Source of the DNA: an uncultured virus (IMG/VR IMGVR_UViG_3300002307_000047)
Taxonomy: Duplodnaviria; Heunggongvirae; Uroviricota; Caudoviricetes
Direction: 5' to 3' (one strand)
Virus record (IMG/VR): IMGVR_UViG_3300002307_000047
Coordinates: 1-64,000 of that record
DNA: 64,000 bases
A program made the translations under genes and the position numbers. Below the pieces are notes generated by a model. That model saw only the letters and a list, made by a program, of their open reading frames with translations, searched no databases and had not been told where the DNA came from. This document shows positions 2,050 to 52,449 of this stretch, piece after piece. The first letter of the stretch is position 1. Each line of letters begins with the position of its first letter.

Positions 2050-2953
2050 AATACATGCTCAGGGGAAGGATATTTCTATAATGCAGGTAGGCAACAATGT
2101 CTACATGAGCCTGACCGATATAATAAAAGGAGAGGAAGGGACTGACCACATTAAGAACTGGATGCGCAATAGAAATACTGTCGAGTTTTTAGGACTATGG
2201 GAGTCTTTAAACAACCCAAATTTCAAAGGTGTCGAATTCGATACCTTTCGGAAAGAGGCGGGGTTAAACAGTTTCACGCTCACTCCTAAGAAATGGGTGG
2301 ATTCCACAGACGCAATAGGCATAGTCTCAAAGGCTGGTCAAAATGGAGGCACATTTGCTCATAAGGACATAGCATTAGAGTTTTGTACATGGCTCAGCCC
2401 ACTATTTAAATTGCTCATTCTAAAGGAATTTCAAAGGCTCAAAGAGGCAGAAGCAATACAGGGCAAATGGGATATTCGCCGCTTCATTGCAAAGGCTAGT
2501 TATAAGATTCAAACCGATGCAATTAAAGCTCACCTACTACCTGCTAGAAATATGCCCAAAGACAAAGAGGGTATTGTATATGCCGAGGAAGCGGAATTGC
2601 TGAATTATGCTTTGTTTGGGATGACCTCTAAAGAATGGCGAGAAAAGAACACTAAGGCTGTATTAGAAGGGCTTAATTTGCGCGACTATGCAGATACTCA
2701 CCAGTTAATAGTTTTGTCGCATCTTGAGAGCTTAAACGCCTCTATGATTAAACAGGGCATACCGCCGAAAGAGCGTTTTATCTATTTGCGGGACACTGCG
2801 GTAGATCAATTGAATTCACTTAAAAGTAGTAATGCAGATGAAACGCTTAGATTGGATAGCCCTCATGTTGCATCCGAGAAAACAACGGAAAGCGTATTTA
2901 ACCAAAGCCTGAAAGGATTACTAAACGTACCACCACCACAAAAAAATAAATAG
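2036..2953 (+). CDS. KilA-N domain DNA-binding protein
   Basis: YMSLTDI, IKNWMRNRNTVEFLGLWE and GGTFAHKDIALEFCTWLSP are typical KilA-N motifs. Confidence 0.9.
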   Translation: MTMLKIHAQGKDISIMQVGNNVYMSLTDIIKGEEGTDHIKNWMRNRNTVEFLGLWESLNNPNFKGVEFDTFRKEAGLNSFTLTPKKWVDSTDAIGIVSKAGQNGGTFAHKDIALEFCTWLSPLFKLLILKEFQRLKEAEAIQGKWDIRRFIAKASYKIQTDAIKAHLLPARNMPKDKEGIVYAEEAELLNYALFGMTSKEWREKNTKAVLEGLNLRDYADTHQLIVLSHLESLNASMIKQGIPPKERFIYLRDTAVDQLNSLKSSNADETLRLDSPHVASEKTTESVFNQSLKGLLNVPPPQKNK

Positions 2954-2954
2954 C

Positions 2955-3926
2955 ATGGAAAAGATAAGGTTTATTGACTTATTCTGCGGTATAGGAGGTT
3001 TTCATACTGCTATGCATTCAGCTTGCATCGAAAATAATTTAATACCCGAATGCGTGTTTGCTTCGGATATAGATGTTTCATGTCAAGATTCATACGAAAA
3101 TAATTTTGGACTTAGGCCAGTAGGGGATATTACAAAGGTTAATGAAAATGATGTGCCCGATCATGACATTTTATTTGCCGGATTTCCTTGTCAGCCATTT
3201 AGTATAATAGGCAACATGAAGGGTTTTCATGACATTAGGGGAACATTGTTTTTTGATATTGTCAGGATAATAAAAGCCAAATCTCCTAAAGCCATTGTAC
3301 TTGAAAATGTAAAACAATTGGTAGGTCACAATAAGGGAGAGACTTTAAAAGTTATAATGAAAACCCTAAAAGACATAGGTTATAACCCACGCTTCGCTGT
3401 TCTAAACGCTTTAGATTACGGGCTACCACAAAAGAGGGAAAGGATAATTATTGTAGGACATAGGGAGCCTATACAGTTTACTTATCCTGAGCCAAAGCGA
3501 CCATTTAAACCATTATCCGAGGTACTTGAAAGCAAGGTAGACAAAAAACATTTTGCATCGGACTATATAAAAGAAAAGAGAAAAGAGAGTCATAAATCTG
3601 CCTACAAATTGGCTATATGGCATGAAAATAAAGCGGGTAATATCTGCTCTTACCCTTATTCATGTGCATTACGAGCGGGTGCCTCTTACAATTATCTTTT
3701 GGTCAATGGCGAAAGAAGATTAACCCCACGGGAAATGTTTCGCCTACAGGGATTTCCAGATACCTATAAGATTACACCTAATGATGGACAGGCAAGGAAA
3801 CAAGCGGGTAACGCTGTTCCTGTAAATTTAGTTAAGGCTGTTATTTTGAAACTTTTACCTTATGTTGCATCTACAATGGATATGACATCAGTATTAAAAG
3901 ATTACGAAGTAACAACACATGGCTAA
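2955..3926 (+). CDS. DNA (cytosine-5) methyltransferase; target-recognition domain resembles M.HaeII
   Basis: Motifs DLFCGIGG, GFPCQPFS, LENV, PQKRER, QAGNAV; target-recognition region IWHENKAGNICSYPYSCALRAGASYNYL. Confidence 0.95.
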   Translation: MEKIRFIDLFCGIGGFHTAMHSACIENNLIPECVFASDIDVSCQDSYENNFGLRPVGDITKVNENDVPDHDILFAGFPCQPFSIIGNMKGFHDIRGTLFFDIVRIIKAKSPKAIVLENVKQLVGHNKGETLKVIMKTLKDIGYNPRFAVLNALDYGLPQKRERIIIVGHREPIQFTYPEPKRPFKPLSEVLESKVDKKHFASDYIKEKRKESHKSAYKLAIWHENKAGNICSYPYSCALRAGASYNYLLVNGERRLTPREMFRLQGFPDTYKITPNDGQARKQAGNAVPVNLVKAVILKLLPYVASTMDMTSVLKDYEVTTHG

Positions 3927-4662
3927 AATATCTCCCAAACTAAGAACGGTACACAAAAGCCCACCAGCTTATGAGTTAAACAAATTCCCTAAAGAACTGC
4001 CCTATACAATAGGTCGGGAAATTGTCTATTTGCTTGCATCCAAAGGCAAGCCTAATTTAATTGGCTCTGAATGGGAAGAGATATTTGCTAAGAGCATCGG
4101 TGCCGAATGGAGAGATTCAAACGTTGGTTTAGATGACGTTAGACTAGGTAATACAGCATGGGGAGCAAAGACAGTCAAGTCTGTAAACCCTGCGAATCAA
4201 AAAAAGGTACGTCTTATTTCAGGTAGAAATTCAATTGTATATTCATTCGGTGCAAACATTGATGTGTCGGTAGATCCTAATCTGCCTGGTGAACAAGTTT
4301 TATCTATTTGGAATGATAGAGTAAGCGCAATAAGAGAGAGATTCGACCATTTACGCACCATAGTACTTATAAAGTCAAATGACTTGTCAGAAGTGGTCGT
4401 ATTTGAGTTTGAAACTATAAGGTATGACCCTGAGTTGTTTTATTGGAAATGGAATAAAGAGAACAATCTCGAAGGGTATGATAAAAACGGACACGAGCAT
4501 GTATTTACTTGGCAACCTCATGGCTCACAATTTACCATTCATGAGAAAGTGCCATCCGAAAAGGTTACGATCAAAATAAGAAAGCCACAAGTACTAGATA
4601 AAGATAAAACGCTACAGGCTTTGGGCTTTGATAGCTCATGGGTAACTGTAATTAGCAGCTAG
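3919..4662 (+). CDS. putative type II restriction endonuclease, PD-(D/E)XK-like
   Basis: Overlaps the methyltransferase stop; 247 aa; WEEIFA...LDDV...GAKTVK resembles a PD-(D/E)XK arrangement; mainly a context-based call. Confidence 0.7.
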   Translation: MAKISPKLRTVHKSPPAYELNKFPKELPYTIGREIVYLLASKGKPNLIGSEWEEIFAKSIGAEWRDSNVGLDDVRLGNTAWGAKTVKSVNPANQKKVRLISGRNSIVYSFGANIDVSVDPNLPGEQVLSIWNDRVSAIRERFDHLRTIVLIKSNDLSEVVVFEFETIRYDPELFYWKWNKENNLEGYDKNGHEHVFTWQPHGSQFTIHEKVPSEKVTIKIRKPQVLDKDKTLQALGFDSSWVTVISS

Positions 4663-8069: not shown

Positions 8070-8366
8070 TTAGGTAAGCGAAAGCTCTATAGCCTTTATA
8101 CGTTTGTCGATAGCATCCAATCTTGAATCAGAATCGCCAGTTTTTATCCATTCAAGGCTCATGGCGGACTCTTTAGCCATGCGCTCACACATCTCATCCG
8201 CTGGCTCGGATTTATGCCCTATAACATCCCTTAGCCTTTCAAAGTCCTCACCTGATGCCTGCGCGTACTGCAATGGCGATTGAAACTTCTTGGATTTACC
8301 CTGTTTGGTGCGGGGATTGCCGATGATGGAGTAATAGGCTTGCATAAAGCGGTCTGTTCTGTTCAT
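8070..8366 (-). CDS. HTH repressor-like protein (cI/Cro N-terminal type)
   Basis: SLEWIKTG resembles the xWLxTG end of cI-type HTH domains; minus-strand TATATTTG box at 8384-8391. Confidence 0.5.
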   Translation of the reverse strand: MNRTDRFMQAYYSIIGNPRTKQGKSKKFQSPLQYAQASGEDFERLRDVIGHKSEPADEMCERMAKESAMSLEWIKTGDSDSRLDAIDKRIKAIELSLT

Positions 8367-8423
8367 ATTGGGGATTTATTACTCAAATATAGGAATTTGA
8401 TTCCCATTTACTAATTTTATCGC

Positions 8424-8858
8424 ATGAAAGAATCATTTGATACGGTGACGTGTGATATATGCGCCAAGGACTTTGTGTGGAAGAAGCTCAGGGAAACCAA
8501 AGAATACGACTTTAGAATAGCCATACATTACAGTAAATCAATCAATTGTTATGACTCAGCTAAAGTAGTACTTTACATGCACAGCGAGCTAGCCAAGAGC
8601 TATCTTTTGAAGGATATAGCAGTAGCCGCGCATGAGTTGGGGCACTATGAGCAAGCGTTATATGGCTACTGGCTAATGAAAATAAGAGAGAAGAGTGGGG
8701 TATTTATTCGGCGAATACTTGACGTGTTCATTGAGGCCGATGCGAATAGGCGCGGTATGCTGATATTGGGCGACTACGCTAAGGGATATGAGCAAGATAT
8801 AGCCAAAATGTACCAAAAAATGCTGTGGGCGTACAAAAAAGAAGCAATTAGGTTTTGA
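8424..8858 (+). CDS. zinc metallopeptidase, HEXXH type (YugP / neutral zinc peptidase-like)
   Basis: IAVAAHELGHYEQ plus downstream IEADANRRG third-ligand motif. Confidence 0.75.
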   Translation: MKESFDTVTCDICAKDFVWKKLRETKEYDFRIAIHYSKSINCYDSAKVVLYMHSELAKSYLLKDIAVAAHELGHYEQALYGYWLMKIREKSGVFIRRILDVFIEADANRRGMLILGDYAKGYEQDIAKMYQKMLWAYKKEAIRF

Positions 8859-8918
8859 ACTATGAATTTCATTCCTATATTTGCATTGCTAAGTCAAAAT
8901 ATCTGAATAATAAAATAA

Positions 8919-9137
8919 GTTGCAATCACACGAAATGTACCACAGTACGCGGCAGAGTTTAGGCGTATCCGAATAAAGCAGAATTTAACTCAGCAGGGGT
9001 TGGCTACACTATTGGGCATGGATGTGACAACAATATCGAAGATTGAATTAGGGAAATCGAAGCCAAGCATAGGCACACTAGAGAATATGGGTGAGAAATT
9101 AGGATTTAAAATTGAGCTAAACTTTGTAGAGGCATGA
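8919..9137 (+). CDS. XRE-family HTH regulator, absent from the ORF track; no canonical in-frame start
   Basis: Frame reads FRRIRIKQNLTQQGLATLLGMDVTTISKIELGKSKPSIGTLENMGEKLG; stop overlaps the next ATG; TATATTTG box at 8876-8883. Confidence 0.75.
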   Translation, partial: VAITRNVPQYAAEFRRIRIKQNLTQQGLATLLGMDVTTISKIELGKSKPSIGTLENMGEKLGFKIELNFVEA

Positions 9138-9505
9138 TAGCAATACCATTCATCTTGATTGTCTTCGCTGCCATATTCTCATTTTGGTACTACTACAAGG
9201 AGTCTTGGACTGTCAAATCGGTAGACGGGGGCTACGATCCGAATGAACGCATTAGCTTTGAGTACCGTGGGCAGATCATCCACATGACAGCCTTTGAAAA
9301 AACGGAGGTGTGGGATAACTGGAACAGAGAACAGCGGAACTTTCACCTTGAAGAAATAAAGAAAGGGTTAAAAACAGACACAATCAGGCTCTTGGATTTA
9401 GGTGATGAGCAATCTATGTTTGTCGCAGGTTCTAAAGGAAAGCAAGCCCAAAAGAGGCAGGACACTTACAATAAAAACTTAGAAAAACCATATGGCAGAC
9501 CTTAA
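9134..9505 (+). CDS. membrane-anchored hypothetical protein
   Basis: N-terminal hydrophobic helix. Confidence 0.65.
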   Translation: MIAIPFILIVFAAIFSFWYYYKESWTVKSVDGGYDPNERISFEYRGQIIHMTAFEKTEVWDNWNREQRNFHLEEIKKGLKTDTIRLLDLGDEQSMFVAGSKGKQAQKRQDTYNKNLEKPYGRP

Positions 9506-9758
9506 ATTCAGACCATTACAGAACCGCGTGGTGGTAAAACCCATCGAAGATCAGCAGGTAAGCGCGGGTGGATTCCATATAGGCGCAATGGAAACGAAAG
9601 AGAAGCGCGGGGAAATACTCGCCAAGGGTAAACTCGCTAATGAGGTAGAAGTAGGCGAAACAGCAGTCTATGGGCACTACAACCCGATAGAAATATCCCT
9701 CAGCGGTCAAAAGCTGATAATTATGAAAGAAACAGACATTTACGGAATCATAGAATAA
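9492..9758 (+). CDS. groES: co-chaperonin GroES (Cpn10)
   Basis: FRPLQNRVVVKP...SAGGFHI...RGEILAKG...IMKETDIYGII. Confidence 0.93.
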   Translation: MADLKFRPLQNRVVVKPIEDQQVSAGGFHIGAMETKEKRGEILAKGKLANEVEVGETAVYGHYNPIEISLSGQKLIIMKETDIYGIIE

Positions 9759-9767
9759 ACCAAACCA

Positions 9768-11378
9768 ATGAGCAGAAAAATTCAATTTAATCAAGAAGCA
9801 AGAGAGTCACTTCTTGCAGGCGCAAACAAGATCGCAAATGCGGTGAAAGCCACGCTAGGGCCATTAGGCAAGAATGCCATACTTGGCACAGACCTAGGAG
9901 CACCCACTTCTACCAAGGATGGAGTTTCTGTTGCTAAATATGTGGAACTGCCTAATAAACTTGAAAATCAAGGGGCACGTGCCCTAAGAGAAGCAGCAAT
10001 CAAAACTGTAGGACAAGCAGGGGACGGCACAACTAGTACAATTGTTTTGGCGCAAAGCATTTTAAACTCAGGAATGGATGCCATAAAAGAAGGTTACAAT
10101 GCTGTAGACCTAAAGCGTGGCATCGACAAAGCAGTAGAAATCGTAGTCGGCAGGCTTAAAGAAATGTCAACTCCCGTAAATGATAGCTACGAGAAGATAC
10201 TGCAAGTAGCGACCATATCGGCGAACAATGATGCAGAGATCGGTAAATTGGTAGCAGATGCCATTTCAAAAGTGGGTCTTGATGGGGTCGTGCATGTAGT
10301 AGAATCAAACAGCACTAAATCTGATCTGTCATTCATGGATGGCATGGTACTGAATAGCGGATATACCAATGTGGGATTTGTCACAGATGCCGAGAAAATG
10401 GAGGCTGTTCTTGAGAACCCGCTAGTACTAATGACATCTAAGTCAATAGAAGGGCCGCAGCAACTTATCCCATTTCTTGATAGTATTGCAAAAATAGTAT
10501 CAGCAAGTGGGCAAAAAATGCCGCCAGTTCTTATCATTTCCGATGGGATAGATAGCACATCAATGGCAGTCCTTGCTACTAACTTTGTAAAGGGCACACT
10601 GAAATCATGTGTTGTGAATGTTCCACATGGACACCCTGAGCAAAGGGATGAGTTTATGGAGGACTTGGCTGTAATGCTTGATGGAAAATATGTAACCGAC
10701 TACAAGGGAGATAAGATTGAGGACTTGACAATAAGTGAACTCGGCTCATGTTCAAAGGTAGTAATAGGCAAAGATAGTACAACATTCATTGGCGCGGCGG
10801 GTGATGAATCGGCAATTGGTAATCGCATTGCTTCTATTCGCCTTGATGTAGCAAGCGCACAAGCGGATGGCAATGAGCCGCGCGTAGCGTTCCTAAAAGA
10901 GAGAATCGCAAAGTTGTCAAGCGGGATTGCAGTGATTGAGGTCGGCGCACCGACAAACTTCGAAATGAAAGAACGCAAAGACCGTTTTGATGATGCAGTA
11001 GGCGCGACACGGGCGGCAATGGAAGAGGGAATCGTACCCGGTGGTGGTACATCATATCTCAGGTGCAATCAGATTGGTCTTGAAGTGGATGCAAGCCTGA
11101 GTAAATCACAACTACGCGGTATGATTATCGTCATGGATGCACTACTATATCCGCTACTCACTATTTGCGAAAATGGAGAAATTGACGCATCGGTTGTGAT
11201 CTCAGAGGTAAAATCGGGCAATGGAGCCTATGGCTACAATGCTTATACTGAGAAATATGGTAATATGATTGAAATGGGGATAATTGACCCCACTAAGGTA
11301 GCGCGTGTGGCATTAGAGAATGCTGCTTCTATCGCGGGTATGCTATTGACAACAGAGGTGCTAATTGTAAATGACTAA
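9768..11378 (+). CDS. groEL: chaperonin GroEL (Cpn60)
   Basis: TLGPLG, TKDGVSVA, AGDGTTS, EEGIVPGGG, GIIDPTKVAR; no C-terminal GGM tail. Confidence 0.97.
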   Translation: MSRKIQFNQEARESLLAGANKIANAVKATLGPLGKNAILGTDLGAPTSTKDGVSVAKYVELPNKLENQGARALREAAIKTVGQAGDGTTSTIVLAQSILNSGMDAIKEGYNAVDLKRGIDKAVEIVVGRLKEMSTPVNDSYEKILQVATISANNDAEIGKLVADAISKVGLDGVVHVVESNSTKSDLSFMDGMVLNSGYTNVGFVTDAEKMEAVLENPLVLMTSKSIEGPQQLIPFLDSIAKIVSASGQKMPPVLIISDGIDSTSMAVLATNFVKGTLKSCVVNVPHGHPEQRDEFMEDLAVMLDGKYVTDYKGDKIEDLTISELGSCSKVVIGKDSTTFIGAAGDESAIGNRIASIRLDVASAQADGNEPRVAFLKERIAKLSSGIAVIEVGAPTNFEMKERKDRFDDAVGATRAAMEEGIVPGGGTSYLRCNQIGLEVDASLSKSQLRGMIIVMDALLYPLLTICENGEIDASVVISEVKSGNGAYGYNAYTEKYGNMIEMGIIDPTKVARVALENAASIAGMLLTTEVLIVND

Positions 11379-12006
11379 CCTAACCCCCATATCAATATCT
11401 GACGACCCAATGACTCAAAGGGTGTATGTGCGATTTGCTGATTCAGTGAAGCATATATCCACTCAGATGCTTGGAGATTTGGAAGTACCCGCTGATGTCA
11501 ATGATATGTATGAGTATGCACCTAAATGGGGTACGATCATATCTATCTCAGATGGAGAGAAAGACCTGATTGTAGGCGATAAAGTCTACGTAGACTACCT
11601 CACATACAAGTTGGCTAAGAAACAGCATGAAGAGGGGCTAATGATGCAAGACGACGCTATCAGGACTGCGGTTATACGCAAATCTGACATTTATCTGATT
11701 GTGCGCGGCGAAGAACTCATAAGTGCGAACGGATACTGCCTCGTAGAGCCGATAAAAGAAACTCAGACAATGGCTAAGGGCTTTTACATACCCAAGTCAG
11801 CACTCGGAGAAAACAAGGCATTGGAGGGTGTTGTGTATCTTTGTCCAAAAGGCAGAGATATTGAGGTCGGTCAGCGGGTGCTATTTGAGACTGACAGCGA
11901 CATACCCCTTGAATTTGACTTGACTCAGACCATGCCGAAAGTTTGGCGTGTGCCGATAAATGAGATAGTTGGCATTTTGGAAACAGCTTTAGATGATGTG
12001 ATATGA
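11371..12006 (+). CDS. tandem double GroES-like domain protein
   Basis: Two Cpn10-like units: RVYVRF...GTIISI...VGDKVYV and YCLVEP...KGFYIP...GVVY...VGQRVLF. Confidence 0.7.
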   Translation: MTNLTPISISDDPMTQRVYVRFADSVKHISTQMLGDLEVPADVNDMYEYAPKWGTIISISDGEKDLIVGDKVYVDYLTYKLAKKQHEEGLMMQDDAIRTAVIRKSDIYLIVRGEELISANGYCLVEPIKETQTMAKGFYIPKSALGENKALEGVVYLCPKGRDIEVGQRVLFETDSDIPLEFDLTQTMPKVWRVPINEIVGILETALDDVI

Positions 12007-12221: not shown

Positions 12222-12886
12222 CAATCCGACCCGAAGAATATGGACAAATGGATTGGGACATTTATAGTGTGCCTCTCGCTAAATCGGTACTCAAAGAGTT
12301 CCCTGATTTGGAAACCATATTCAAGGAATTTCTGAAAAAAGAAATGCCGAAAGGTTTTACGCTCGACAAAATGATTCGCTATATCATCTACGTCTATCAT
12401 AAAAAATCACCCCTAGTCAAAAGGATAAGCGACATAGACAGTCGCAAAGACCGCGCCCTAATGGAGCTAGGTTTTATGCGTGACGATGCGTGGGATAAGG
12501 AATTTGTCGATATAATGAACAACGAAAGCGACCTGCAAGTCGATATGATCTTTCAATTCCTGTACTATCAGCGTGATATAAACTTTTTGTCCCTCATCAC
12601 TCAGGAGGAGTCATACATGAATTTTTCCAAGTCTCTGATGAAACTAGAGAAAGGCGCGGCAGGCATAGAGAAGCAGACTAAAATATCAGCGCAACTAGAC
12701 ATCATTCTGACAAGGATAGAGAAGTACAGTACAGCGGCATTCTATGGGGACATATCCCTAAAAGACGACCTATCTGTACAAAAGCTCGTAGCAAGCAGGG
12801 CCGCCCCAGTATCACCGGAAGAAAATGCAGCAAATGAAAAAGACCTCAGATCACGCGCCAAAGCGGAAGCTGCAAGAAATCGTTAA
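12218..12886 (+). CDS. pre-terminase protein, possible terminase small subunit
   Basis: Helical 222-aa protein directly upstream of and overlapping TerL; positional inference. Confidence 0.45.
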   Translation: MTIRPEEYGQMDWDIYSVPLAKSVLKEFPDLETIFKEFLKKEMPKGFTLDKMIRYIIYVYHKKSPLVKRISDIDSRKDRALMELGFMRDDAWDKEFVDIMNNESDLQVDMIFQFLYYQRDINFLSLITQEESYMNFSKSLMKLEKGAAGIEKQTKISAQLDIILTRIEKYSTAAFYGDISLKDDLSVQKLVASRAAPVSPEENAANEKDLRSRAKAEAARNR

Positions 12887-15086
12887 GGAATATCAACCCT
12901 ACCAAAAGGTCATAACTATTCGTCAGGACGTAGAGGGCATGCTACCCTACGAAATAGAACTCCCCGATGCTCCCGACCCCAAAGAATTTATAAACTACGG
13001 GCTACCTAAAGAGGAGCAGTATTTTGTCTATGAGGCTAAACCTGATTGGCTTACTAAGCTGAACAGGATGAAACGTGCCGATGCTATGAAAGTCGCAAAG
13101 ACTAATGCTGAGATCAACGCATGGATAGCATCACAATGGGACAAGCGAAAAAACGGGATATTTATTTACATCAATGGGAAACCACTACACATACCCGGCA
13201 AACATTGGTTTTATCTGAACTACTACACAATCAAGGGACAAATACCCGACTTTCTATGGGTGGATTTGGAGTATTTCTACTGGTATGAGTTCTGTATTTT
13301 AAGGGATTCAACGGTATATGGCGGCATAGAACTAGCTAAACGGCGCGATGGTAAGTCATATCGAGCAGCGTGTAACATGCTTGAGTACATATCTAGGCAG
13401 TATGAGGCATTCGCGGGTATCCTATCCAAGAATGGCGGTGACGCTCAAGAACTATTCGGACGTGGTATAGTCATGGCATGGCGAAGGCTACCATTCTTTT
13501 TTAATCCAAAATTTGACAATAAGACATTCCCCGTAAAGGAATTGGCATTCCGTGATGCGAGTAGGGGCGGTGAAAAGCTAGACCTGAGTGATCTCTTGAC
13601 CGCAAGCGGTGACGTAGATGGGCTTAATTCACGGATAGAGGCGCGTAACACTGTCAATAATGCCTTTGACGGTGAACAGTTAGGGGCAATAGACTTTATG
13701 ACCCGTGGGCTAACCCTAATAATGGATGAAGCGGGTAAGTGGCAAGAGGAAAAGACGGTGCATATTGGTCGGGCGTGGGATAAGCATAAGGAATGCTTGC
13801 GCGTAGGCACAAAAAAGGTCGGCGTAGCTATGCTCACTACTACCATTGAAGAAATGGCAAGTGGTGGACGCGGGTTTGTGGAACTATGGAAACAGTCAGA
13901 TCGTAGCAGTAAAAGCAGGCTCGGAGAAACAGAGAGTGGACTAGTGCCGTTCTTCAAAAAAGCATCTGAGTGCCTTGTGACCGATGAATACGGATTCCCT
14001 ATTATCGGAAAGCCATCGGAACGGGATTCTGCCTATTTAAAGCAAAAGTATCTTGATGAAGGGGAGAAGGTTAAAGTGGAACTTGGCTATCACTTGATGG
14101 GTGGAGAAGAAATATGGCAGGCTGAATACGATGCTTGCTCAAGTGCTAAGGCACGTCAGGAGTATATCAGAAAGTACCCGCCATCTATCAAAAAAGCCTT
14201 TGCCTCTGTCAACAATGAGTGCCAGTTTGACAAAGAGATACTTGATGCAAGCAAGGCGAGGTTCTTTTACGGCGATCCATGCTGCGAGAAGTTTAACCTT
14301 AAAAATGTCGGCACCGAGGATGAACCAAAGGTAGAAGCAGAATGGTGCAGTAATGGTAAATACAAGGCACCGCGTAAACTCATAGAGCATATTCAAGCAA
14401 ACTATGCCAATCAGATATATCGTGGCGAAGATGGTTTTTGGAGGCCGCGCAACATAGATAAGGGGCTGATAGGGTCGGATGCGTTCAAATCAAGCAAAAT
14501 TCTCGCTAAAGAAGGGTCAAACGGTACATTGGTGACATATTTCAGACGAGACTATGGGCTAGACCCGGAGGGAACGCCTGAATTAGACCTAATGACTGAT
14601 GATTATGGCATATGGTACGGTGATAGGCCACCGAGCGTAGATGAATACTGCCGTGAGGCTATCAAATTGTGCGTGTTTTTAGGTATGAAGGTATTCCCTG
14701 AGACAAACGTAGATGCTGTGAGAAACTTCTTTTTAGCAAACGGGATGCAGTATTTTCTTTACCATAGGAAAGAACAAAAGTACGAGCAAGGGCAAATTGT
14801 GACTAAAACAGCAGCAGTAGCGGGTATGCAGACAATCGGCGGCACAAGATCAGATGATATGATTGCCATGATGCAGTCATGGGTAATCAGGTGTGGCATG
14901 AGGTGTAAGTTTGAGGAGATAATAGATGATTGCCTAAAGCTAGAGCCAAACAATTGGTCGCCATATGATACGTTTGTCGGGGCTGTTTACGCATTGTTCG
15001 GTATTCAATCAGATACCAAGCCCCATAGGAGTAAGGACACACAGAAAAAGGCAGATGTTGCGGGGATGTTGTGGGAGGCTAGATAA
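12825..15086 (+). CDS. terL: terminase large subunit
   Basis: Walker A-like KRRDGKS, Walker B IMDEAGK, nuclease region IGSDAF...PETN; size and position. Confidence 0.9.
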   Translation: MQQMKKTSDHAPKRKLQEIVKEYQPYQKVITIRQDVEGMLPYEIELPDAPDPKEFINYGLPKEEQYFVYEAKPDWLTKLNRMKRADAMKVAKTNAEINAWIASQWDKRKNGIFIYINGKPLHIPGKHWFYLNYYTIKGQIPDFLWVDLEYFYWYEFCILRDSTVYGGIELAKRRDGKSYRAACNMLEYISRQYEAFAGILSKNGGDAQELFGRGIVMAWRRLPFFFNPKFDNKTFPVKELAFRDASRGGEKLDLSDLLTASGDVDGLNSRIEARNTVNNAFDGEQLGAIDFMTRGLTLIMDEAGKWQEEKTVHIGRAWDKHKECLRVGTKKVGVAMLTTTIEEMASGGRGFVELWKQSDRSSKSRLGETESGLVPFFKKASECLVTDEYGFPIIGKPSERDSAYLKQKYLDEGEKVKVELGYHLMGGEEIWQAEYDACSSAKARQEYIRKYPPSIKKAFASVNNECQFDKEILDASKARFFYGDPCCEKFNLKNVGTEDEPKVEAEWCSNGKYKAPRKLIEHIQANYANQIYRGEDGFWRPRNIDKGLIGSDAFKSSKILAKEGSNGTLVTYFRRDYGLDPEGTPELDLMTDDYGIWYGDRPPSVDEYCREAIKLCVFLGMKVFPETNVDAVRNFFLANGMQYFLYHRKEQKYEQGQIVTKTAAVAGMQTIGGTRSDDMIAMMQSWVIRCGMRCKFEEIIDDCLKLEPNNWSPYDTFVGAVYALFGIQSDTKPHRSKDTQKKADVAGMLWEAR

Positions 15087-15136: not shown

Positions 15137-17548
15137 ATGAGTGATTACATTCCCGCGTATGATTACAATGGTCTGTGCCCATCAGACCAAATAGACCCTG
15201 CTCTTAAAGATAAAGATTGGGTGATGATGCGTACTAAATATGCGTATGGTCGCAATCAGAGCAGCGTGTTTATGAACAACGCTCGGCGCAATGATTGGAT
15301 AATCAACGAGCAGTATGCAGACGGTAATCAAAATACATCTAAATATAAGAACTGGCTATCGAAGTTAAAGAGCGATGGCAAGGGGAATGTGCCGAAGGGT
15401 GAAACCATATCCTACATGGATTTGGATTACTCCATCGTATCCACTATCCCGAAGATGGAAGATGTGGTACTTGAGTACTGGAACAAGCTAGACTACGATG
15501 TATACTGCGATGCCATCAATCCCGCAGCTACACAAGACCGCAAATTCTTTGAGGCATTTCTAAAGACCAAGTTAGTATTGAAAGAGTTCAATGCAATGGT
15601 CGATGAGGCATTGGGTAAAAATCCACAGGCGCAGGAAAGTGATTTCATGCCGCAGGATATGGATGAGATTCAGATATTCTTGCAAGATGGATTTAGGCTA
15701 CCATACGAAATGGAGATGGAGCTTGGCATTCAGATGTGCAAGGAAGAATCTGATTGGAAAGAAATTCGCAAGCGCATACGCAAGGACTTTTTCAGAAAAG
15801 CATGTGGCGCATGTAAGGTATATATAGACCGCATTACAGGCAAGCCAAAGGTTCGCTATGTCAATCCTATCAACTGCATCCTTGAAGATTTTGAGGGGCA
15901 TGACGGGGACGCTATGAATGGATTTGGCGAAGTAATCGCTATGACCATAGCCGACATTCGCCTTGACGCGGGAGATCAATTCACAGAGGAGGACTATTAC
16001 AACATAGCCAAGCTAAACTGCGGTATGTATGGTAATCCTGATGAAATGCTCCCGTGGTCGGACTATATCAATACTGATGTGCAGTACACAATGTGGCGAA
16101 ACTATGACAGTTTCAAGATAAAGGTGCTCGACTATGAGTTTAACAGCAGTGATAGGATCAAACAAGCAAGGTCTGAGAAATATTCTAAAGACAGCCCCAA
16201 CTACTACCGCAGACCATACAGCGAACCGGAGGGAATCAAAAAGAAAAAAGCTAAAGATGGCACCATATATGATGAAGAGGTAAAGGCTATCGACATCAAG
16301 ACCATATACGGGTGTATGTGGATTATCGGTAGTAATTTCTGCTATAACGCGGGAAAGAAAGCCAATATCGCACGTCCAAATGAGAATAAAAAAGAGTGCT
16401 ACCGTGAGTTTAAGTTTTGGCGCGTAAGCAACAAGTCAATGATTGAGAGGCTTATCCCATTGGCTGATTCAATCGCTCTTACCTACTTGAAGATTCAGAA
16501 CATGAAAGCCCGTATGGTAAATATGGGTCTGATGATAGAGCATGGGTCTTTTGAGAATATGACGCTTGATGGAGCAGATTTCAAGGCTAAACAAGCTATT
16601 GAGACAGGTTTCCAAACGGGAATATGGATATACAAGCGAAATTCTGCATTTGACTCAGACGGGAGCAAAACAGCGGTAGCAGACCCCGTGAAAGAAATTG
16701 GCGGCGGTGCGTGGAATGAAATTTTGACTGCGTGGCAGGAAATAGATGTCAATATCCAAAAGATGCGTGACATAAGCGGTATCAATGAAGTCATGGATGC
16801 TACTGTCCCCAATCCTAAATTAGCAGTTGGGATTGCCAATATATCCCTTACCGCAGCAAATAATGCTATTTCCCCTCTGATAGAGGCTTTTGTCTCTATG
16901 GAGGAGAAAATATCGTACATGATTATGCTGAAAATTCAAGTGGCATGTAGGCTTGGCAAGTTGACGGGATGGGTTAAAGCCCTTGGCTCAGTATTCCCGC
17001 AAATGATTGAACTCGGTGATGATCTCTCGCCGCTGTCATACGGTATACGTGTCGTGGCAAGGCCAACCGCAGATGAAAAGCAAGCAATACTGACTGTAGC
17101 CGACAAGTGCCTTAATAATGCTAATCCTTCTGAGGATAGCATAGAAGCTCCTGATTATTTTATGATTAGGCGCATGGTGATGAACGGCACCAACCTCAAA
17201 GTGGTCGAAATGATACTCGCAAGCCGTATCGCTAAGAACAAAAAAGCTAAACAGCAGACGCAACAAATGATTGCACAGCAGACGGCATCAGCGCAGACGC
17301 AGGGGGCTATACAGTTAGAGCAAGCTAAAATGACGACTATCCAAGCGAAAGGCGAGGAAGACAGAAAAACGGCAGAAGTGCAGGGTATGTGGGCAGTCAA
17401 AGCTATACAAGCTAAGGCTACTACGCTACAGGATCAATCCATCATAGATGGGGCGATAGACAAGGAAATAGCCTATCATCAGCACCAACTTGACCTCATA
17501 ATGGCAGCAAAGCAGAACGCCAAAGCAAATCAAACTCAACCACAGTAA
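15137..17548 (+). CDS. portal protein
   Basis: 803 aa after TerL; YMDLDYSIVSTIPK, VRYVNP, RDISGINEVMD; Gln-rich C-terminal barrel; TAACTTTG box at 15113-15120. Confidence 0.85.
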   Translation: MSDYIPAYDYNGLCPSDQIDPALKDKDWVMMRTKYAYGRNQSSVFMNNARRNDWIINEQYADGNQNTSKYKNWLSKLKSDGKGNVPKGETISYMDLDYSIVSTIPKMEDVVLEYWNKLDYDVYCDAINPAATQDRKFFEAFLKTKLVLKEFNAMVDEALGKNPQAQESDFMPQDMDEIQIFLQDGFRLPYEMEMELGIQMCKEESDWKEIRKRIRKDFFRKACGACKVYIDRITGKPKVRYVNPINCILEDFEGHDGDAMNGFGEVIAMTIADIRLDAGDQFTEEDYYNIAKLNCGMYGNPDEMLPWSDYINTDVQYTMWRNYDSFKIKVLDYEFNSSDRIKQARSEKYSKDSPNYYRRPYSEPEGIKKKKAKDGTIYDEEVKAIDIKTIYGCMWIIGSNFCYNAGKKANIARPNENKKECYREFKFWRVSNKSMIERLIPLADSIALTYLKIQNMKARMVNMGLMIEHGSFENMTLDGADFKAKQAIETGFQTGIWIYKRNSAFDSDGSKTAVADPVKEIGGGAWNEILTAWQEIDVNIQKMRDISGINEVMDATVPNPKLAVGIANISLTAANNAISPLIEAFVSMEEKISYMIMLKIQVACRLGKLTGWVKALGSVFPQMIELGDDLSPLSYGIRVVARPTADEKQAILTVADKCLNNANPSEDSIEAPDYFMIRRMVMNGTNLKVVEMILASRIAKNKKAKQQTQQMIAQQTASAQTQGAIQLEQAKMTTIQAKGEEDRKTAEVQGMWAVKAIQAKATTLQDQSIIDGAIDKEIAYHQHQLDLIMAAKQNAKANQTQPQ

Positions 17549-17605
17549 AATAAAGTTTGCATAATTAGTATTAGTTAACTACTTTCGTAACATAATAACC
17601 AAATA

Positions 17606-18637
17606 ATGACAGCCGAAGAAGAAGCAAAACTAGAAGCAGCCTTTAGCGAAGGTGGTGGGCAGAAAGCCGCCGCCGCACCCGCTGATGATGCTAGTAAGTC
17701 TGACAATCAGCAGCAAGACGGGAATCAGGCAGCAGATCAACAAGCCGCCGCCGATGCAGCAAAACCCGAAGTATTCAACTTCGATGCTGAGTTTAAGAAA
17801 AAATACGGCATCGAATCAACAGACTTTGACGCTATTAAGCAAAAGGCTACACTCGCAGAGCAGCTTCAAAATGCTGATCCATTCGATAATGATGAGCTAA
17901 GAGCCATCAATACCGTAATGAAAGAGCGTGGTGTAACTGCAAAAGAGGCAATACAATATCTATCAATAGACCCTACCAAGCTAGATGCTAGGGAACAATA
18001 TCATACATTCAGGTCACTAACTGCGAAAGGAATGTCTGCTGAGGCTATCAACAGGCAAATCCTTAAAGAGTTTCCCGACCTCGATAGCGATGATGCTGAT
18101 CTCAAACAACAAGCATTGGAAGACCTTCAATATAAAGTGGCTACAGAGGGTATCGGTGACAAACTGAAAGAACTTCGCGACAAAGCATATCAAAAGCCGG
18201 GGGCAACCCGCGCAGAAGTGCTATCGAACGAGGCTAAAGAATCTCAAGCGAAAGCATGGGATACTGAACTTACTAAAATCGCCGCCGACACCAAGAAGTA
18301 CAAACTGGCATTTGATGGGTCGAATGAGACATTGGATTACGACCTCGGCGTAGATATAACCGAAATAAAAGATCGGGTAATATCAAAGGGTTATCCTGCA
18401 ACCCCCGAAAATCTTGAAGCAGCAAGGGTCGAACTGGAAAGCAAGGCACTACGTGCTCAGCTCCCAAAGATTCTTGCCAAGATAAAAAAGGATAGCTATA
18501 AGGATGGGCAGAACCAAGTAGAGTCAACCCTTTACAATGAACTGCATAATCCTAGCCAAAGCAAAACAGTCACCACCACGGGTAAAACTGTGAATAAAGA
18601 GGCTGAACTTGCAAAACTTGACTCACTCAATTTCTAA
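17606..18637 (+). CDS. capsid scaffolding protein
   Basis: Acidic, disordered N-terminus, helical; lies between portal and capsid; promoter-like TTTG-N20-TACTTTCG at 17556-17587. Confidence 0.65.
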   Translation: MTAEEEAKLEAAFSEGGGQKAAAAPADDASKSDNQQQDGNQAADQQAAADAAKPEVFNFDAEFKKKYGIESTDFDAIKQKATLAEQLQNADPFDNDELRAINTVMKERGVTAKEAIQYLSIDPTKLDAREQYHTFRSLTAKGMSAEAINRQILKEFPDLDSDDADLKQQALEDLQYKVATEGIGDKLKELRDKAYQKPGATRAEVLSNEAKESQAKAWDTELTKIAADTKKYKLAFDGSNETLDYDLGVDITEIKDRVISKGYPATPENLEAARVELESKALRAQLPKILAKIKKDSYKDGQNQVESTLYNELHNPSQSKTVTTTGKTVNKEAELAKLDSLNF

Positions 18638-18655
18638 AAAAACTCAAAAACTAAA

Positions 18656-20095
18656 ATGAAAAAATTTAAATCTCTGATAGCGTTCCTTCTCATAGGAGTT
18701 CTGTCCGTTTTTGGCTCAGGCTCTAACACCGTGTACGGTCAAGGCCCAATCGTGTCTAACCCGTCAGCAACATCCACAAGCGTCACAGACCCGTGGGTAT
18801 CCTCTCTGACAATCCACATGCCCGAATACAAAAGGAAGCTCTACAAGCGTTTCCTTGGTCAAAATGACACCCTTTTCTCTACGCTCGATCTCATGGGCTA
18901 TAGCTCAGGATACGATGGCGTAGCGCAAACTAACTTTGGTCACTGGGAAGAAGGCTACGAAGTGGAAACTATCACTTCGCTTAACTCGGTAGCAGACCCC
19001 GGCGCAGGTAACACAATCTCTATCCTCGTAGACCCCGCAACTGTGGATGCACAAAGCGGTACAATCTACGCACAGGTAAAGGATGATGTGCTATTCCCTA
19101 CTGGTGTAGGTACTGTAAAAGGTAAGATTACTGCAATTACAGGTACAACTCCCAACTTTACTGTGGTAATCACTCCGCATGATACCACTATTACACTCGG
19201 CGCAGTACCCGCAGGACAACAACTATATATCTACTCAAACGGTATGCTTGAGGCTGATTCTAGCCGTCAGAGCCGTATCAGTAAGCCTACACTGTTTAAC
19301 TTCGGTGCAAAGATACTTTGGGAGTCATTTAGCTTCTCAGGAACTGAGTCTACCAACCAAATATGGTTCGATGTGAACGGCAAACAGTGCTATGTTTACA
19401 AAGGACAAGGTGAAATGGAAGCAAGACTGATGAGCGACATTGATGGTGCTGCATTTTGGGATGCTCCTATCAATAACGCTGCCCTCGTAGGCAACCGTAA
19501 CATGACAGGTCTGTGGAACTTCAATGCTACCGCAGGCAACACTCGCCAATACAATCAAGGTCTTTGGGGTATTCCTGATTACTACGCAATCACTAAGCAA
19601 CTGACTAAAACCTTTGGTGGCGATCAGTACCTTGGATTCTTTGCACTCGATCTGTACAATGAGAATGAGCAAGCCTTTGGTGATCTGTTCACAGGCAACC
19701 CGCTTATCTTCTCTAACTTTGATGGTACATTCAGAAATACAGAGGCTAAGAAACTTGATCTCGGCTTTGGCTCGGTGACAGTATCTAACAAGACCTTCAT
19801 GCTGAAATGCCTGAAAGAAATGTCTCACCCTAAGAAAGCAGGTGCGCCGGGTTACAACCTTGAGGGTATCGGTATGATTATGCCTAATGATCGTGCTAAG
19901 GATGCTAAGACAGGTGGCCTTATGCCTCACGTACAGTTCAGGGCTAAACAACTGGACGGTGTGAATCGCAAGATCGTAATGTCTAAGAGGGACTTCGGTA
20001 TCACTGGAACTGACCAAACTAAATTCGATGTACTCTCTGAACAGGGTATCGAGATATTTGGCATTAACCGTTTCATGGCAGTATCACGTAACTAA
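18656..20095 (+). CDS. major capsid protein with an N-terminal signal-peptide-like extension
   Basis: Motifs of crAss-like/Flavobacteriales podovirus capsids (GHWEEG, FSFSGTESTNQIWF, LDLGF, PHVQFRA, FDVLSEQG...NRF); follows scaffold; strong terminator after it. Confidence 0.85.
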   Translation: MKKFKSLIAFLLIGVLSVFGSGSNTVYGQGPIVSNPSATSTSVTDPWVSSLTIHMPEYKRKLYKRFLGQNDTLFSTLDLMGYSSGYDGVAQTNFGHWEEGYEVETITSLNSVADPGAGNTISILVDPATVDAQSGTIYAQVKDDVLFPTGVGTVKGKITAITGTTPNFTVVITPHDTTITLGAVPAGQQLYIYSNGMLEADSSRQSRISKPTLFNFGAKILWESFSFSGTESTNQIWFDVNGKQCYVYKGQGEMEARLMSDIDGAAFWDAPINNAALVGNRNMTGLWNFNATAGNTRQYNQGLWGIPDYYAITKQLTKTFGGDQYLGFFALDLYNENEQAFGDLFTGNPLIFSNFDGTFRNTEAKKLDLGFGSVTVSNKTFMLKCLKEMSHPKKAGAPGYNLEGIGMIMPNDRAKDAKTGGLMPHVQFRAKQLDGVNRKIVMSKRDFGITGTDQTKFDVLSEQGIEIFGINRFMAVSRN

Positions 20096-20110
20096 TCAAT
20101 AAATAACAGG

Positions 20111-20139
20111 CAGGGGCAGTTAATTCTGTCCCTGTTTTT
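20111..20139 (+). terminator. intrinsic terminator after the capsid gene
   Basis: CAGGGGCAG-loop-CTGTCCCTG then TTTTT. Confidence 0.8.
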
Positions 20140-20161
20140 ACAAACCAAAAACAAGAAACAA

Positions 20162-21046
20162 ATGGCTATTTATAAAAACAATGTAGTGTGGGAGGGGTGG
20201 AAAGACACAGACCTTGCAAAAGAACTCGATGTAAAAAAACCTATCGTCTACAAACTAGCGCCACACCACAAGTCGAAAGAAGTAATCGAAAAGGGTAACG
20301 TTCGTGTAGAAATAGACAAGTACCCGCATAGTTTCGCTGTGAGTTGCAGCGAGAGATATTTGGACAAGGACGGAGAAGGATGCGTTATCACCTATGCAAA
20401 CACAATGTTTGAGAGGGGTGGCAACAACTACTACGAGCCATCTGAGATCATGTTTACGGGTGGTGAGCATATCGTACCCGCCGGAGCAAAAGACAAGGCA
20501 TGGTTCATGGCAATCTCTAAGGCTAATATGGCTAATGGGGTGTCGGGAACATTCTTTGAGTATGATATTGATAAGGAGAAGAAGAAAGAGGCGGCTACTA
20601 AAAAAGCTCATTCTGAGGTCGTTTATCTTATCACTAACACAATGACCGATGCAGAAGTAGTAGACATGAATACACGCCTGTATAAAGGCACGACTACAAA
20701 CCCTGATGATGCACGTAAGGCTCTTGAGGTAATCGCCACATCCGATCCTAAGAAGAAAGATGGTGTTGGCCCCGAGAAGTTCAAAAAGGCATTCCTAGAC
20801 GAAATAAGGACATCCAAAAAACTCATCATAGAGGCACAGCGTCAAAAGATCATAAACGACTACAAGACCGAACAGGCTTGGTTTTGGCTCAAGGGGGATG
20901 AAAGCAAAGGACTCAAAATATGTGACTTCGCGAAGGGTTCAGACCCAATCGAGGCACTTGTAAAACACATCGACAAAAATCCGGGTGTGCTTGAGAAGAT
21001 CACATCAGACCTTGAAGCAATAAAAGAACTAGAAACAGCATCATAA
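20162..21046 (+). CDS. hypothetical protein following the capsid gene
   Basis: 294-aa ORF in the head module. Confidence 0.7.
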   Translation: MAIYKNNVVWEGWKDTDLAKELDVKKPIVYKLAPHHKSKEVIEKGNVRVEIDKYPHSFAVSCSERYLDKDGEGCVITYANTMFERGGNNYYEPSEIMFTGGEHIVPAGAKDKAWFMAISKANMANGVSGTFFEYDIDKEKKKEAATKKAHSEVVYLITNTMTDAEVVDMNTRLYKGTTTNPDDARKALEVIATSDPKKKDGVGPEKFKKAFLDEIRTSKKLIIEAQRQKIINDYKTEQAWFWLKGDESKGLKICDFAKGSDPIEALVKHIDKNPGVLEKITSDLEAIKELETAS

Positions 21047-22733: not shown

Positions 22734-23756
22734 ATGAAAAAGTTTTTAATAGCCCTGATATTTTCAATATTCGCCTTATCGGTATCGGCAACTAACACGG
22801 TAGGAATAGATACACTTGCACTGCCTCGTAGTGGTGCAGTATATATCTATGCAAGCAATCCTAGTGCGCTATATCTCATAAAGGGTAACGACTCGCTTAC
22901 GGGCAATGTAAGCTATATGTTTTCGGGTACCCCATTGATGGGATCGCAAATTACCCTTTGGTTTAACAATACTACGATGATTGGTATTGATAGGAAAATA
23001 TACATATTAGGCGTGGATTACACCTCTATTTTATTGGGTACAAATAACGTATTTGTCACTTGCACCTATAATGGATCAGCATGGACAGTAAATAGTGTAA
23101 ACGCTACGACTCTCGCATATCTATCTGATTATGTGACTCAGGAACAGTTCTCGGACGCGCTAGGAGGGTTAGAAGATACGGCGAGTCTTACCTCCCGACT
23201 ATCTAACTATGCGCTACTTAGTGGGGCTACATTCGCATCTTTGAATGCGCCAGTACAAGCGAACTCTGATAGTTCAACAAAAGTGCAGACTACGGCAGGC
23301 AGCAAAAGGCTGATTCAGGCGGCAATATCCCCATTAGCAACAACCACATATGTAAATTCATCTATTACAAGCTCTATATCAACTGCAACATCTTCAATCA
23401 CAGCAGCGTATACAGCTGCCATCACAGCAAACAATCAGACATTTCAAAACCTGCAATCACTAGATACGCTTGCAGCAGGCACAATAAGCCTCACTACATT
23501 TGTCGGTGATGTATATAATAAGATAGAGCCAACAGTAATTACGGGCAATATCATTCTTACCTCGGGTGTGTTGCCTGCGGGTTCTGTTTCTACTATTGTC
23601 ATAGAGCTACCATCATCAGGCGCATATACTGTAACTGCGGGAGCAAATATGAATTTCTCTACAATTACAGGATCAAATACGCATACAGCGGTATTGACGC
23701 TCACATGGAGTAATAAGCAGCAACGTTACAATCAGCAATCATTTTCACAAAACTAA
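22734..23756 (+). CDS. fibre-like protein with Sec signal peptide
   Basis: MKKFLIALIFSIFALSVSA; fibre-like SDSSTKVQTTA and ATTTYV motifs. Confidence 0.6.
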   Translation: MKKFLIALIFSIFALSVSATNTVGIDTLALPRSGAVYIYASNPSALYLIKGNDSLTGNVSYMFSGTPLMGSQITLWFNNTTMIGIDRKIYILGVDYTSILLGTNNVFVTCTYNGSAWTVNSVNATTLAYLSDYVTQEQFSDALGGLEDTASLTSRLSNYALLSGATFASLNAPVQANSDSSTKVQTTAGSKRLIQAAISPLATTTYVNSSITSSISTATSSITAAYTAAITANNQTFQNLQSLDTLAAGTISLTTFVGDVYNKIEPTVITGNIILTSGVLPAGSVSTIVIELPSSGAYTVTAGANMNFSTITGSNTHTAVLTLTWSNKQQRYNQQSFSQN

Positions 23757-35885: not shown

Positions 35886-36716
35886 ATGGACTTCGGATTA
35901 TCAGGCGGTGGCGGGGCGGCAGCAGGCGGCATACTCGATGGGGTCAGTAGTCTCGCAGGCTCAATCGCGCAATTCGGTTTGGCAGGACAGCAAGACCAAA
36001 GAGCTAAGCAATTGGCAGACCTGTCTAAGAATGCCACAGCCCCGCTGCTTCAAAAAGAATATCAGCAAGCATTAAACATCAGGAATGCCAATGCTAACGC
36101 GGGGCTACCTGATTTGCAGTCATATAATGATGCCCTTGATAATCATATGGCTAATTCACTCAGATCAGCACGTGAGAACGCGTCAAGTGGCTCAGGGCTA
36201 CTCGCATACCTATCAGCGGCAAATGGGGCTAATAATAACTCCAAAATACAACTCGATCAGCAAGATGAAACAGCGCGTGTAGGCAATAAAAATGCCTTGG
36301 TAGATGCACTGTGGCAAGTCGGCGGCAGAAAGGATGTAAATGAGGAGATTAAGAGACAGCAACAGGCTAGACTTAATGCAGCATCGGGCGCAGAATCGGC
36401 AGCGGCTACACAGAATAAATATGGCGCGGCAACGGGGCTATTCAAAGCGGGGGCAAGTATAGCGGGTAACGCAATTGCGCCGGGGCTTGGTAGTTTGGCA
36501 AAGGGTGCAGTTGGGGCTATAAGCTCGGTAGCTGCCCCGAAAAACACACAAGTAGGAAGTGCTGATAATAATGGCGTTCAATTTGACGGAGGCTATCAGG
36601 GTGTCCCGCCAGTTAATAACCCATATGCTAACAATAATGTTGGCGATGGTTCACTTAATGGACAAGTAGCAGATACTACACCTACCGACTCAAACTACAA
36701 TTGGGGATATAACTAA
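35886..36716 (+). CDS. internal virion / ejection protein
   Basis: Gly/Ala-rich amphipathic ends with Gln/Asn-rich coiled coil; first of three internal proteins. Confidence 0.65.
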   Translation: MDFGLSGGGGAAAGGILDGVSSLAGSIAQFGLAGQQDQRAKQLADLSKNATAPLLQKEYQQALNIRNANANAGLPDLQSYNDALDNHMANSLRSARENASSGSGLLAYLSAANGANNNSKIQLDQQDETARVGNKNALVDALWQVGGRKDVNEEIKRQQQARLNAASGAESAAATQNKYGAATGLFKAGASIAGNAIAPGLGSLAKGAVGAISSVAAPKNTQVGSADNNGVQFDGGYQGVPPVNNPYANNNVGDGSLNGQVADTTPTDSNYNWGYN

Positions 36717-36719
36717 ACT

Positions 36720-47223: not shown

Positions 47224-47744
47224 TGGAAACATTCTATGAAAGTACATCGCTAGGGACTATCCCGCGAAAGCTCCAAGCAGGGCAAGCCTACTACGATACT
47301 ATCGCGCAGGTTGCCACTGGTACTTTTGTGTCGGATACCAATGTGCCTACTGTACTACAATATACCCCTGCTTCAACTGAGCAATTGAACCTGCTTATTG
47401 AAGGGGGACAAGGTAATCTATGGGTATTCTTTCCTACCGAAAAGGTGGTAGCTAGAATCATATCGGCTACTCCCAAGTCCTTGAATCTTGACAGGTCTGT
47501 GAGCATTACAGTAGCAGAGTCAGCTCAGTGGATCGTAGGGAATCTCATCGGATACAAAGGTGTAAATATTGGCAATGCGGCAGTATTGGTAAATCCATCC
47601 CTACCTAGCCAATACACAATCAATCCGAATGGTACGCCACTAGATGAAAAACAGACAGGGCGCGCCACATCAGCAGCGAAATACATGGATGTAATAGTTT
47701 ATGACGCAACAGCAAGTGTCTTTGAGATCATAGAACGCAGATAA
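47223..47744 (+). CDS. hypothetical structural protein
   Basis: Coupled by TAATG overlaps on both sides. Confidence 0.55.
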   Translation: METFYESTSLGTIPRKLQAGQAYYDTIAQVATGTFVSDTNVPTVLQYTPASTEQLNLLIEGGQGNLWVFFPTEKVVARIISATPKSLNLDRSVSITVAESAQWIVGNLIGYKGVNIGNAAVLVNPSLPSQYTINPNGTPLDEKQTGRATSAAKYMDVIVYDATASVFEIIERR

Positions 47745-49228: not shown

Positions 49229-49249
49229 TAATTTTACCAAAACAAAACG

Positions 49250-50005: not shown

Positions 50006-50007
50006 CA

Positions 50008-50319: not shown

Positions 50320-50359
50320 TTAGTATCTTTATTTTGGTAACAGCATAAAATCCCCTCAT

Positions 50360-52447: not shown

Positions 52448-52449
52448 AC

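Follow-up and report, generated by a model that had tools for sequence, protein, structure and literature searches.

The question raised by this locus is whether the major capsid protein (MCP) of a tailed phage begins with a genuine signal-like leader, and what such a leader could be doing in a head protein. The window, that is the whole stretch of 64,000 nucleotides that was analysed, belongs to a record of 71,706 bases with a 101-base terminal repeat, and because of this repeat the phage genome (71.7 kb) is probably complete. Coordinates are those of the window and refer to the plus strand unless stated otherwise. A Logan contig (run X1, depth about 110), possibly the source of this DNA, is identical to it over 17600-21000, and 20 N bases lie within about 47700-57900, where at least 6 ORFs are affected. 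The phage comes from freshwater and probably has a host in Bacteroidota, perhaps in Chitinophagales. Such a host is indicated indirectly, by relatives of the IS1595 transposase of the phage that sit in Bacteroidota genomes; 76 of the 80 best relatives are in genomes titled Bacteroidota, and the top one is from Ferruginibacter (73%). The stretch 1126-4662 holds the IS1595 transposase, a KilA-N protein, a C5 methyltransferase and an unassigned 247-aa ORF, which may be the partner restriction enzyme of the methyltransferase.

The ORF at 18656-20095 (479 aa) is a true HK97-fold major capsid protein with an ordinary capsid fold. A PDB search with the single sequence gave no match, and the family profile (146 members) matched the major capsid protein of Vibrio phage VP1 (9in6) with an E-value of 2.5e-18. 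The AlphaFold model (pLDDT 86) had its best Foldseek matches in 9in6 (1.1e-19) and the crAss001 capsid 7qof (2.4e-17), at an identity of 10-16%. The gene stands in a block that runs from the terminase large subunit (12825-15086; phrog_6681, E 4.8e-55) through an 803-aa gene in the portal position (15137-17548; named from synteny, with no family match) and a 343-aa scaffold-like gene (17606-18637; named from its position and its helical, acidic build) to the MCP gene, a terminator-like hairpin seen in the sequence at 20109-20137, and ring- and muzzle-type genes. The scaffold-like protein and 12 orthologues have a nearly invariant H/N-N-P-S motif near the C-terminus, a candidate capsid-binding element. 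Ahead of the head genes lie family-matched genes for GroES, GroEL and a tandem GroES-like protein (9492-12006); of five related genomes checked, all have a homologue of the tandem gene and two have GroEL. A link between GroEL and the leader was considered and rejected, since GroEL is present in this phage (G000), in G001 and in G005, whose MCP has no leader, and is absent from G003, G004 and G007. A single-helix membrane protein at 9134-9505 is conserved before the chaperonin genes in G003 and G004, and a similar gene precedes them in G001 and L002; it is present whether or not the MCP has a leader. Three genes at 35886-46329 (276, 581 and 2624 aa) occupy the position of ejected cargo proteins and have no family match; their giant counterparts in G003, G004 and G007 contain HExxH motifs. 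Virion RNA polymerase genes are a feature of Crassvirales, and none of the ORFs of this genome matched an RNA polymerase family, though a very divergent one could escape. A tblastn search against 50,697 phage records gave no match.

The initial annotation had described a signal-type N-terminus beginning at 18656 with the next Met at codon 55, and the sequence bears this out. Three Lys within residues 2-5 form the basic n-region (residues 1-5, 18656-18670), and the h-region follows at residues 7-19 (18674-18712; mean hydropathy 3.0 over 12 residues). A polar spacer (residues 20-28, 18713-18739) ends V-Y-G and has alternative SPase-type sites after residues 20 and 22, and an N-arm modelled with low confidence (residues 29-55, 18740-18820) leads into a basic helix. 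Residues 29-58 carry a net charge of -2 and are poorly ordered in the AlphaFold model. The A-rich start region noted earlier is also real, as 18631-18658 with ATG1 is unstructured (predicted folding energy 0.0) and ranks at the 67th percentile of 300 host starts. It had been proposed that translation from a downstream GTG would overturn the signal peptide; on the same scale GTG26 stands at the 4th, GTG33 at the 2nd and ATG55 at the 5th percentile. GTG33 (18752-18754) is the only plausible internal start, in a poor context that is not conserved: the codon at the equivalent junction is GTT in L044 and TTA in L002. CTG7 has a good start score, but its product would retain the hydrophobic core. 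No internal ATG, GTG or TTG occurs in codons 11-47 of L044 or 15-84 of L127, the last candidate starts of L002 (codons 27 and 28) are at the 0th-1st percentile, and in L126, by contrast, a TTG at codon 53, near its junction, does moderately well (47th percentile). Because ATG1 is the sole good start and L044 and L127 are without a usable internal one, the leader-bearing precursor is probably the only form of the MCP, and the shell is probably built from it. The leader-bearing MCP at 8749 of L002 starts at a GTG in a strong A-rich context, and a caller restricted to ATG would truncate it inside the hydrophobic core. Database entries of 510 and 507 aa for two-helix MCPs look like similar start mis-calls.

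The leader is more than a chance product. When all six frames of the genome were scanned, 53 of 43,879 stop-free windows showed the pattern of at least two basic residues followed by an uncharged 12-mer with a mean hydropathy of at least 3.0, the value of the leader itself. The same pattern occurred in 8 of 20,000 shuffles of the leader, and the chance rate is about 0.1%. For comparison with the host, 800 kb of a Ferruginibacter genome (531 ORFs) contained 92 signal-like proteins that are not lipoproteins, [AGS]Q being present in 67, and a weight matrix trained on these 67 signal peptides served as a stand-in for SignalP (leave-one-out site recovery 46/67); hydropathy, Eisenberg and insertion scales were also used. 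The leader scored 11.7, the 49th percentile of host signals, against 6.0 for the 99th percentile of 221 cytoplasmic proteins. Scores above the 5th percentile of host signals were found for 16 of 17 leaders vs 2 of 134 leaderless MCPs. Leaders match host signals in hydropathy (p 0.31), and an amphipathic surface helix was rejected because the hydrophobic moment is also that of host signals (p 0.23); predicted membrane insertion of one-helix leaders is slightly better than that of host signals (p 0.019). There is no Cys within residues 1-60 of the MCP, so it is not of the SPII type. The earlier reading as a Sec-type signal holds for the general build and less well for the cut after Gly28. For this leader the matrix favours cleavage behind residue 20 or 22, and in most leaders its sites (residues 16-24) come earlier than the conserved Gly. 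Gly28 fits the -3/-1 rule but sits 9 residues from the h-region, and a spacer of at least 9 residues occurs in only 4 of the 67 host signals, which end in Ala (50/67) far more often than in Gly (7/67). Taken together, the leader is real, probably translated, signal-like and unusual.

The initial annotation had taken related capsid proteins to lack the extension. A phmmer search found 414 relatives of the MCP, of which 150 were listed; removal of 4 fragments shorter than 400 aa and addition of the query and P0003 gave 148 sequences. Among these listed matches 134 (91%) are leaderless and start 7-37 residues (median 21) before the anchor His54, so that view is right for the majority; it fails for 13 of the 147 other full-length members listed. 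The 14 extended sequences have a basic-plus-hydrophobic extension and begin 41-84 residues ahead of His54. Of 40 related loci, many of them redundant, 38 have an in-frame stop just upstream, so the leader is truly absent there; of the remaining two, L002 has a leader and one was unreadable. Searches with the MCP, P0004 and P0011 against viral contigs, and with alignment A3 against GTDB genomes, found no relatives, and DNA context for leader-bearing MCPs besides this one comes from L002, L044, L126 and L127. Trees built from the body alone require 4 changes, and the careful tree (45 rows) requires 3 (bootstrap range 3-4); a topology uniting the 16 leaders in one clade is rejected (p-AU 1e-56). 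The MCP studied here falls in a leader group of nine (SH-aLRT 99 in the quick tree, 73/89 in the careful tree), which the careful tree widens to 11 members at 91/94, while the four leaders with two hydrophobic helices group apart from it (100/99) and P0107 joins neither group. By these trees leaders are placed in 3-4 separate lineages, in one-helix and two-helix forms, and repeated gain seems a simpler reading than many losses. The alignments further show that leaders are conserved in kind, with charge and hydrophobicity kept rather than sequence. In one close pair 12 of 58 leader positions differ vs 1 of 459 body positions, with hydrophobicity kept; in three other close pairs the leader does not change faster than the body (3/22 vs 39/452; 1-2/54 vs 11-14/466). 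Leader-bearing and leaderless sisters matched for comparison are about 40% identical.

Where the leader could end is indicated by a junction of the form x-[FYL]-G / x-x-P (18731-18748), the putative cut site by its register with leaderless starts. The motif x-[FYL]-G fits the -3/-1 rule of SPase I. It was picked after the data were seen, and 12 of 16 leaders have it at a distance of 18-28 residues ahead of the anchor, vs 11 of 92 host proteins and 7 of 134 leaderless controls. Nine of the 12 leaders continue x-x-P; P0004, P0010 and P0107 are altogether without the motif. The leaderless sisters P0003, P0005 and L004 start M-x-P exactly 25 residues before the anchor, which is the register of Gln29, and because they start there a cut after Gly28 would restore the ancestral N-terminus. 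It had been argued from the Q-rule that Gln29 marks a Bacteroidota SPase I site. In P. gingivalis more than 60% of substrates have Gln at +1, according to the accessible text of PMC5837995, and [AGS]Q is present in 67 of the 92 host signal-like proteins. Within residues 15-40 it was counted by eye in 4 of 17 leaders vs those 67 of 92, and Gln directly after the conserved Gly is found in 1 of 17, this MCP only. Because the junction Gln is peculiar to this MCP, the Q-rule is weak support, and the argument built on it fails. Its absence elsewhere would fit a protein that is not retained in the periplasm, because pyroglutamate protects extracytoplasmic proteins (PMC10653852, accessible part).

On these data we propose that the leader is a cleavable membrane-targeting propeptide, that the body of the protein stays cytoplasmic, and that a host membrane protease, probably SPase I acting with aborted export, removes the leader; we regard this reading as having about an even chance of being right. 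The MCP would be made only as a precursor, whose leader would enter the inner membrane through Sec/YidC, the HK97 body meanwhile folding and remaining inside. The positive-inside rule predicts that with a one-helix leader the chain is directed outward. Residues 29-58, uncharged to acidic, would give enough length for a loop across the translocon with the body folding in the cytoplasm, and on such a loop-inserted chain SPase I would be the likeliest enzyme, cutting at or shortly before Gly28/Gln29, after which the unstructured N-arm could slip back. After the cut the MCP would begin where translation of the leaderless relatives starts at a Met of their own. A two-helix leader would leave the body inside directly. 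The likely use of the membrane step would be to hold subunits there and to delay or nucleate procapsid assembly, and the final head would be an ordinary cytoplasmic one. DNA packaging is cytoplasmic. Full export of the MCP is unlikely, to judge from gene content, since neither a signal nor a hydrophobic N-terminus is present on the terminase, the portal-position protein or the scaffold-like protein; for the same reason the suggested extracytoplasmic assembly is unlikely. In favour of SPase I are the one-helix build and the -3/-1 fit; against it are the Gly ends, the better matrix sites at 16-24 and the two-helix forms, in which the Gly motif would, by topology, be cytoplasmic and out of reach of SPase I. 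A cut in two steps is possible. In the literature searched, no bacterial precedent was found for aborted export of hundreds of subunits per head.

A host enzyme is invoked in view of what the phage itself encodes. The initial annotation had recognised no prohead protease, and for classical prohead proteases and rhomboids this holds in the complete genome; it had missed a zinc-peptidase gene. Rhomboid, ClpP and other head protease families were not found in the complete genome. Rhomboid PF01694 is absent from this genome (0/1) and from 10 related records (0/10), no ORF of the genome has more than two predicted helices, the S78 prohead protease (PF04586) was found in 0 of 5 relatives, and no phage protease common to leader-bearing genomes was found. 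A protease hidden in the gene just upstream of the MCP was considered and rejected: only Met1 and Asn315 are invariant, with no catalytic invariants and no PDB match, and the helical model of this scaffold-like protein is weak (pTM 0.32). The sole peptidase recognised is a 144-aa YugP-like HExxH zincin at 8424-8858, at the front of the late genes, a weak candidate for the leader protease. That this zincin frees a membrane-tethered precursor is an unlikely alternative, to which its PF04298 match above cut-off (E 1e-7) and the agreement of its model with that family (TM 0.85) lend some substance. G001, which is the second complete genome with a one-helix leader, has a homologue with HExxH and a downstream Glu in the corresponding position, and the gene is absent from the leaderless G003, G004 and G005. 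Yet G000 and G001 are sisters, so this pattern is a single event; the complete G007, with a two-helix leader, has no zincin; and the gene faces a repressor-like gene head-to-head, as regulator proteases do. Because of the single phylogenetic event and the repressor-like neighbour, sequence comparison makes a host enzyme more likely than the zincin. The repressor-like gene (8070-8366, minus strand), the zincin and then a small HTH gene make up 8070-9134, and the first two could be a repressor/protease switch; the zincin of G001 has no repressor neighbour upstream. A search for more small zincins returned only full-length PF04298 proteins of 220-240 aa.

Other explanations do away with the membrane, the cut or the single product. 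The leader could be a non-membrane propeptide, comparable to the 80alpha leader or the HK97 delta domain, with a greasy helix that binds scaffold, chaperonin or other leaders in the procapsid until a soluble protease clips it, the likeness to signals being incidental. We consider this improbable, though it is the alternative with most to be said for it. It avoids the topology problem and accounts for a conserved Gly motif common to one- and two-helix forms, but a binding peptide should keep its sequence, whereas leaders keep only charge and hydrophobicity; the scaffold-like genes have no matching leader; and an exposed host-grade signal is hard to hide from SecA/SRP. Host-cleaved capsid leaders as such are known (PMC5744158, accessible part). 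That the leader is never removed, and instead lines the shell interior, where it might hold lipid, or anchors procapsids to the membrane up to lysis, seems quite improbable. No shared protease was found, and one-helix leaders insert slightly better than host signals; an uncleavable 80alpha capsid protein is moreover viable, as the available text of PMC5744158 has it. Against this, the protease-type motif is conserved in register with the ancestral start, and chain B of crAss001, modelled over 503 residues, suggests an ordered N-terminus with little room.

A shade less probable still are two products of the kind known from hepatitis B virus (HBV) precore and core, ATG1 giving an exported periplasmic or secreted form (a decoy or an exclusion factor) and GTG33 the shell protein. 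Initiation at GTG33 would leave a normal N-arm of 21 residues, and L126 has its TTG near the junction, but the low rank of GTG33, the GTT and TTA codons at its position and the lack of an internal start in L044 and L127 speak against it. The separate secreted form suggested initially is weakened likewise, there being no internal start to supply the virion pool. As for a mis-called start or a neutral upstream extension, most relatives do start about 30 codons later; the strong context of ATG1, 16 independent leaders of one type and the low chance rate have largely refuted it, and we give it hardly any weight.

The proposed membrane-targeting leader is not the only signal found in this genome. 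A fibre-like gene of the structural region (22734-23756), with no PDB match and only weak Atlas leads, has a standard signal peptide by the weight matrix, and two further genes (47744-49228 and 49250-50005, together 47744-50005) have standard Q-rule signals by the same measure. Fibre-like genes with standard signals also occur in L002 (12894), L003 (14158, 15686) and L004 (14389, 14984), and three fibre-like orthologues have an Asp inside the hydrophobic core. In 6 of 8 fibre-type genes of these phages Gln comes right after the short standard signal. The signal-bearing fibre-like proteins may leave the cytoplasm by export and be joined to virions when the cell lyses. Because structural-region genes with signals are also present in the sisters G003 and G004, whose MCPs are leaderless (they are absent from G007), use of the export route seems older in the clade than the MCP leader. 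A fuller scheme, in which an HK97 MCP is routed through the Sec translocon with SPase I as head-maturation protease, aborted export returns the cut subunit, the arrangement was gained at least 3 times, and exported fibre-type proteins join the virion only at lysis, is less likely than not.

The accepted picture is that HK97 shells form from soluble subunits and lose any leader to phage proteases or, in Staphylococcus phage 80alpha, to host Prp. The leader described here points to a possible membrane step in the building of a tailed-phage head. With a recurrent leader of membrane type, HK97 shell assembly would gain a route coupled to the membrane, and also a dependence on the host that drugs such as SPase I inhibitors could exploit. 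Cutting by SPase I, if it occurs, would provide a natural example in bacteria of cleavage that is not followed by export, and the Sec/SPase I reading, if true, would mean an M13-like membrane step in a tailed phage. In the filamentous phage M13 the major coat protein is made as procoat with a signal peptide cut by SPase I; unlike this MCP it does not have the HK97 fold, the mature coat is a membrane protein and the virion is extruded. T4 proheads are assembled at the inner membrane with a phage co-chaperonin and a cleaved MCP N-terminus; unlike in the present proposal, the T4 prohead is attached by its portal and a phage protease, gp21, does the cutting. The 80alpha leader is short and soluble and mimics ribosomal protein L27. 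It is common to capsid and scaffold, whereas the leader here is hydrophobic and signal-like and is absent from the scaffold-like gene. The likeness to our proposal is that in 80alpha N-terminal capsid and scaffold leaders are removed by a host protease, Prp, according to the accessible part of PMC5744158.

The closest solved folds, phicrAss001 gp32 (7qof) and the VP1 capsid (9in6), come with a similar head-tail gene block, and the accessible text of the crAss001 paper (PMC10172136) has no occurrence of 'signal', 'protease' or 'cleav'. In the literature searched, outside which subscription papers mostly lie, no study of such an MCP leader was found beyond that of Matrishin et al. 2023 (PMC10367356). 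According to the accessible portion of that paper, MCPs of Nixviridae, prophages of P. gingivalis, carry signal peptides likely cut by prohead proteases. Like this phage, they combine a Bacteroidota MCP with a predicted signal peptide and other Q-rule signal proteins; unlike it, they encode prohead proteases, and the signal is known there by prediction, from one sentence (PMC10367356, same portion). This phage, in contrast, has no prohead protease, and its MCP is of the VP1/crAss-like family. A parallel for the fate of the protein is HBV precore, where the capsid gene is extended by about 29 codons that encode a signal, and where 70-80% of the product, once cleaved, is released back into the cytoplasm (PMC2114996, accessible part). 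The signal-encoding capsid extension and the cleavage followed by release to the cytoplasm resemble what is proposed here; HBV is eukaryotic, however, and its precore is an optional second product beside a core with its own start, whereas in this phage the extended form seems to be the sole one.
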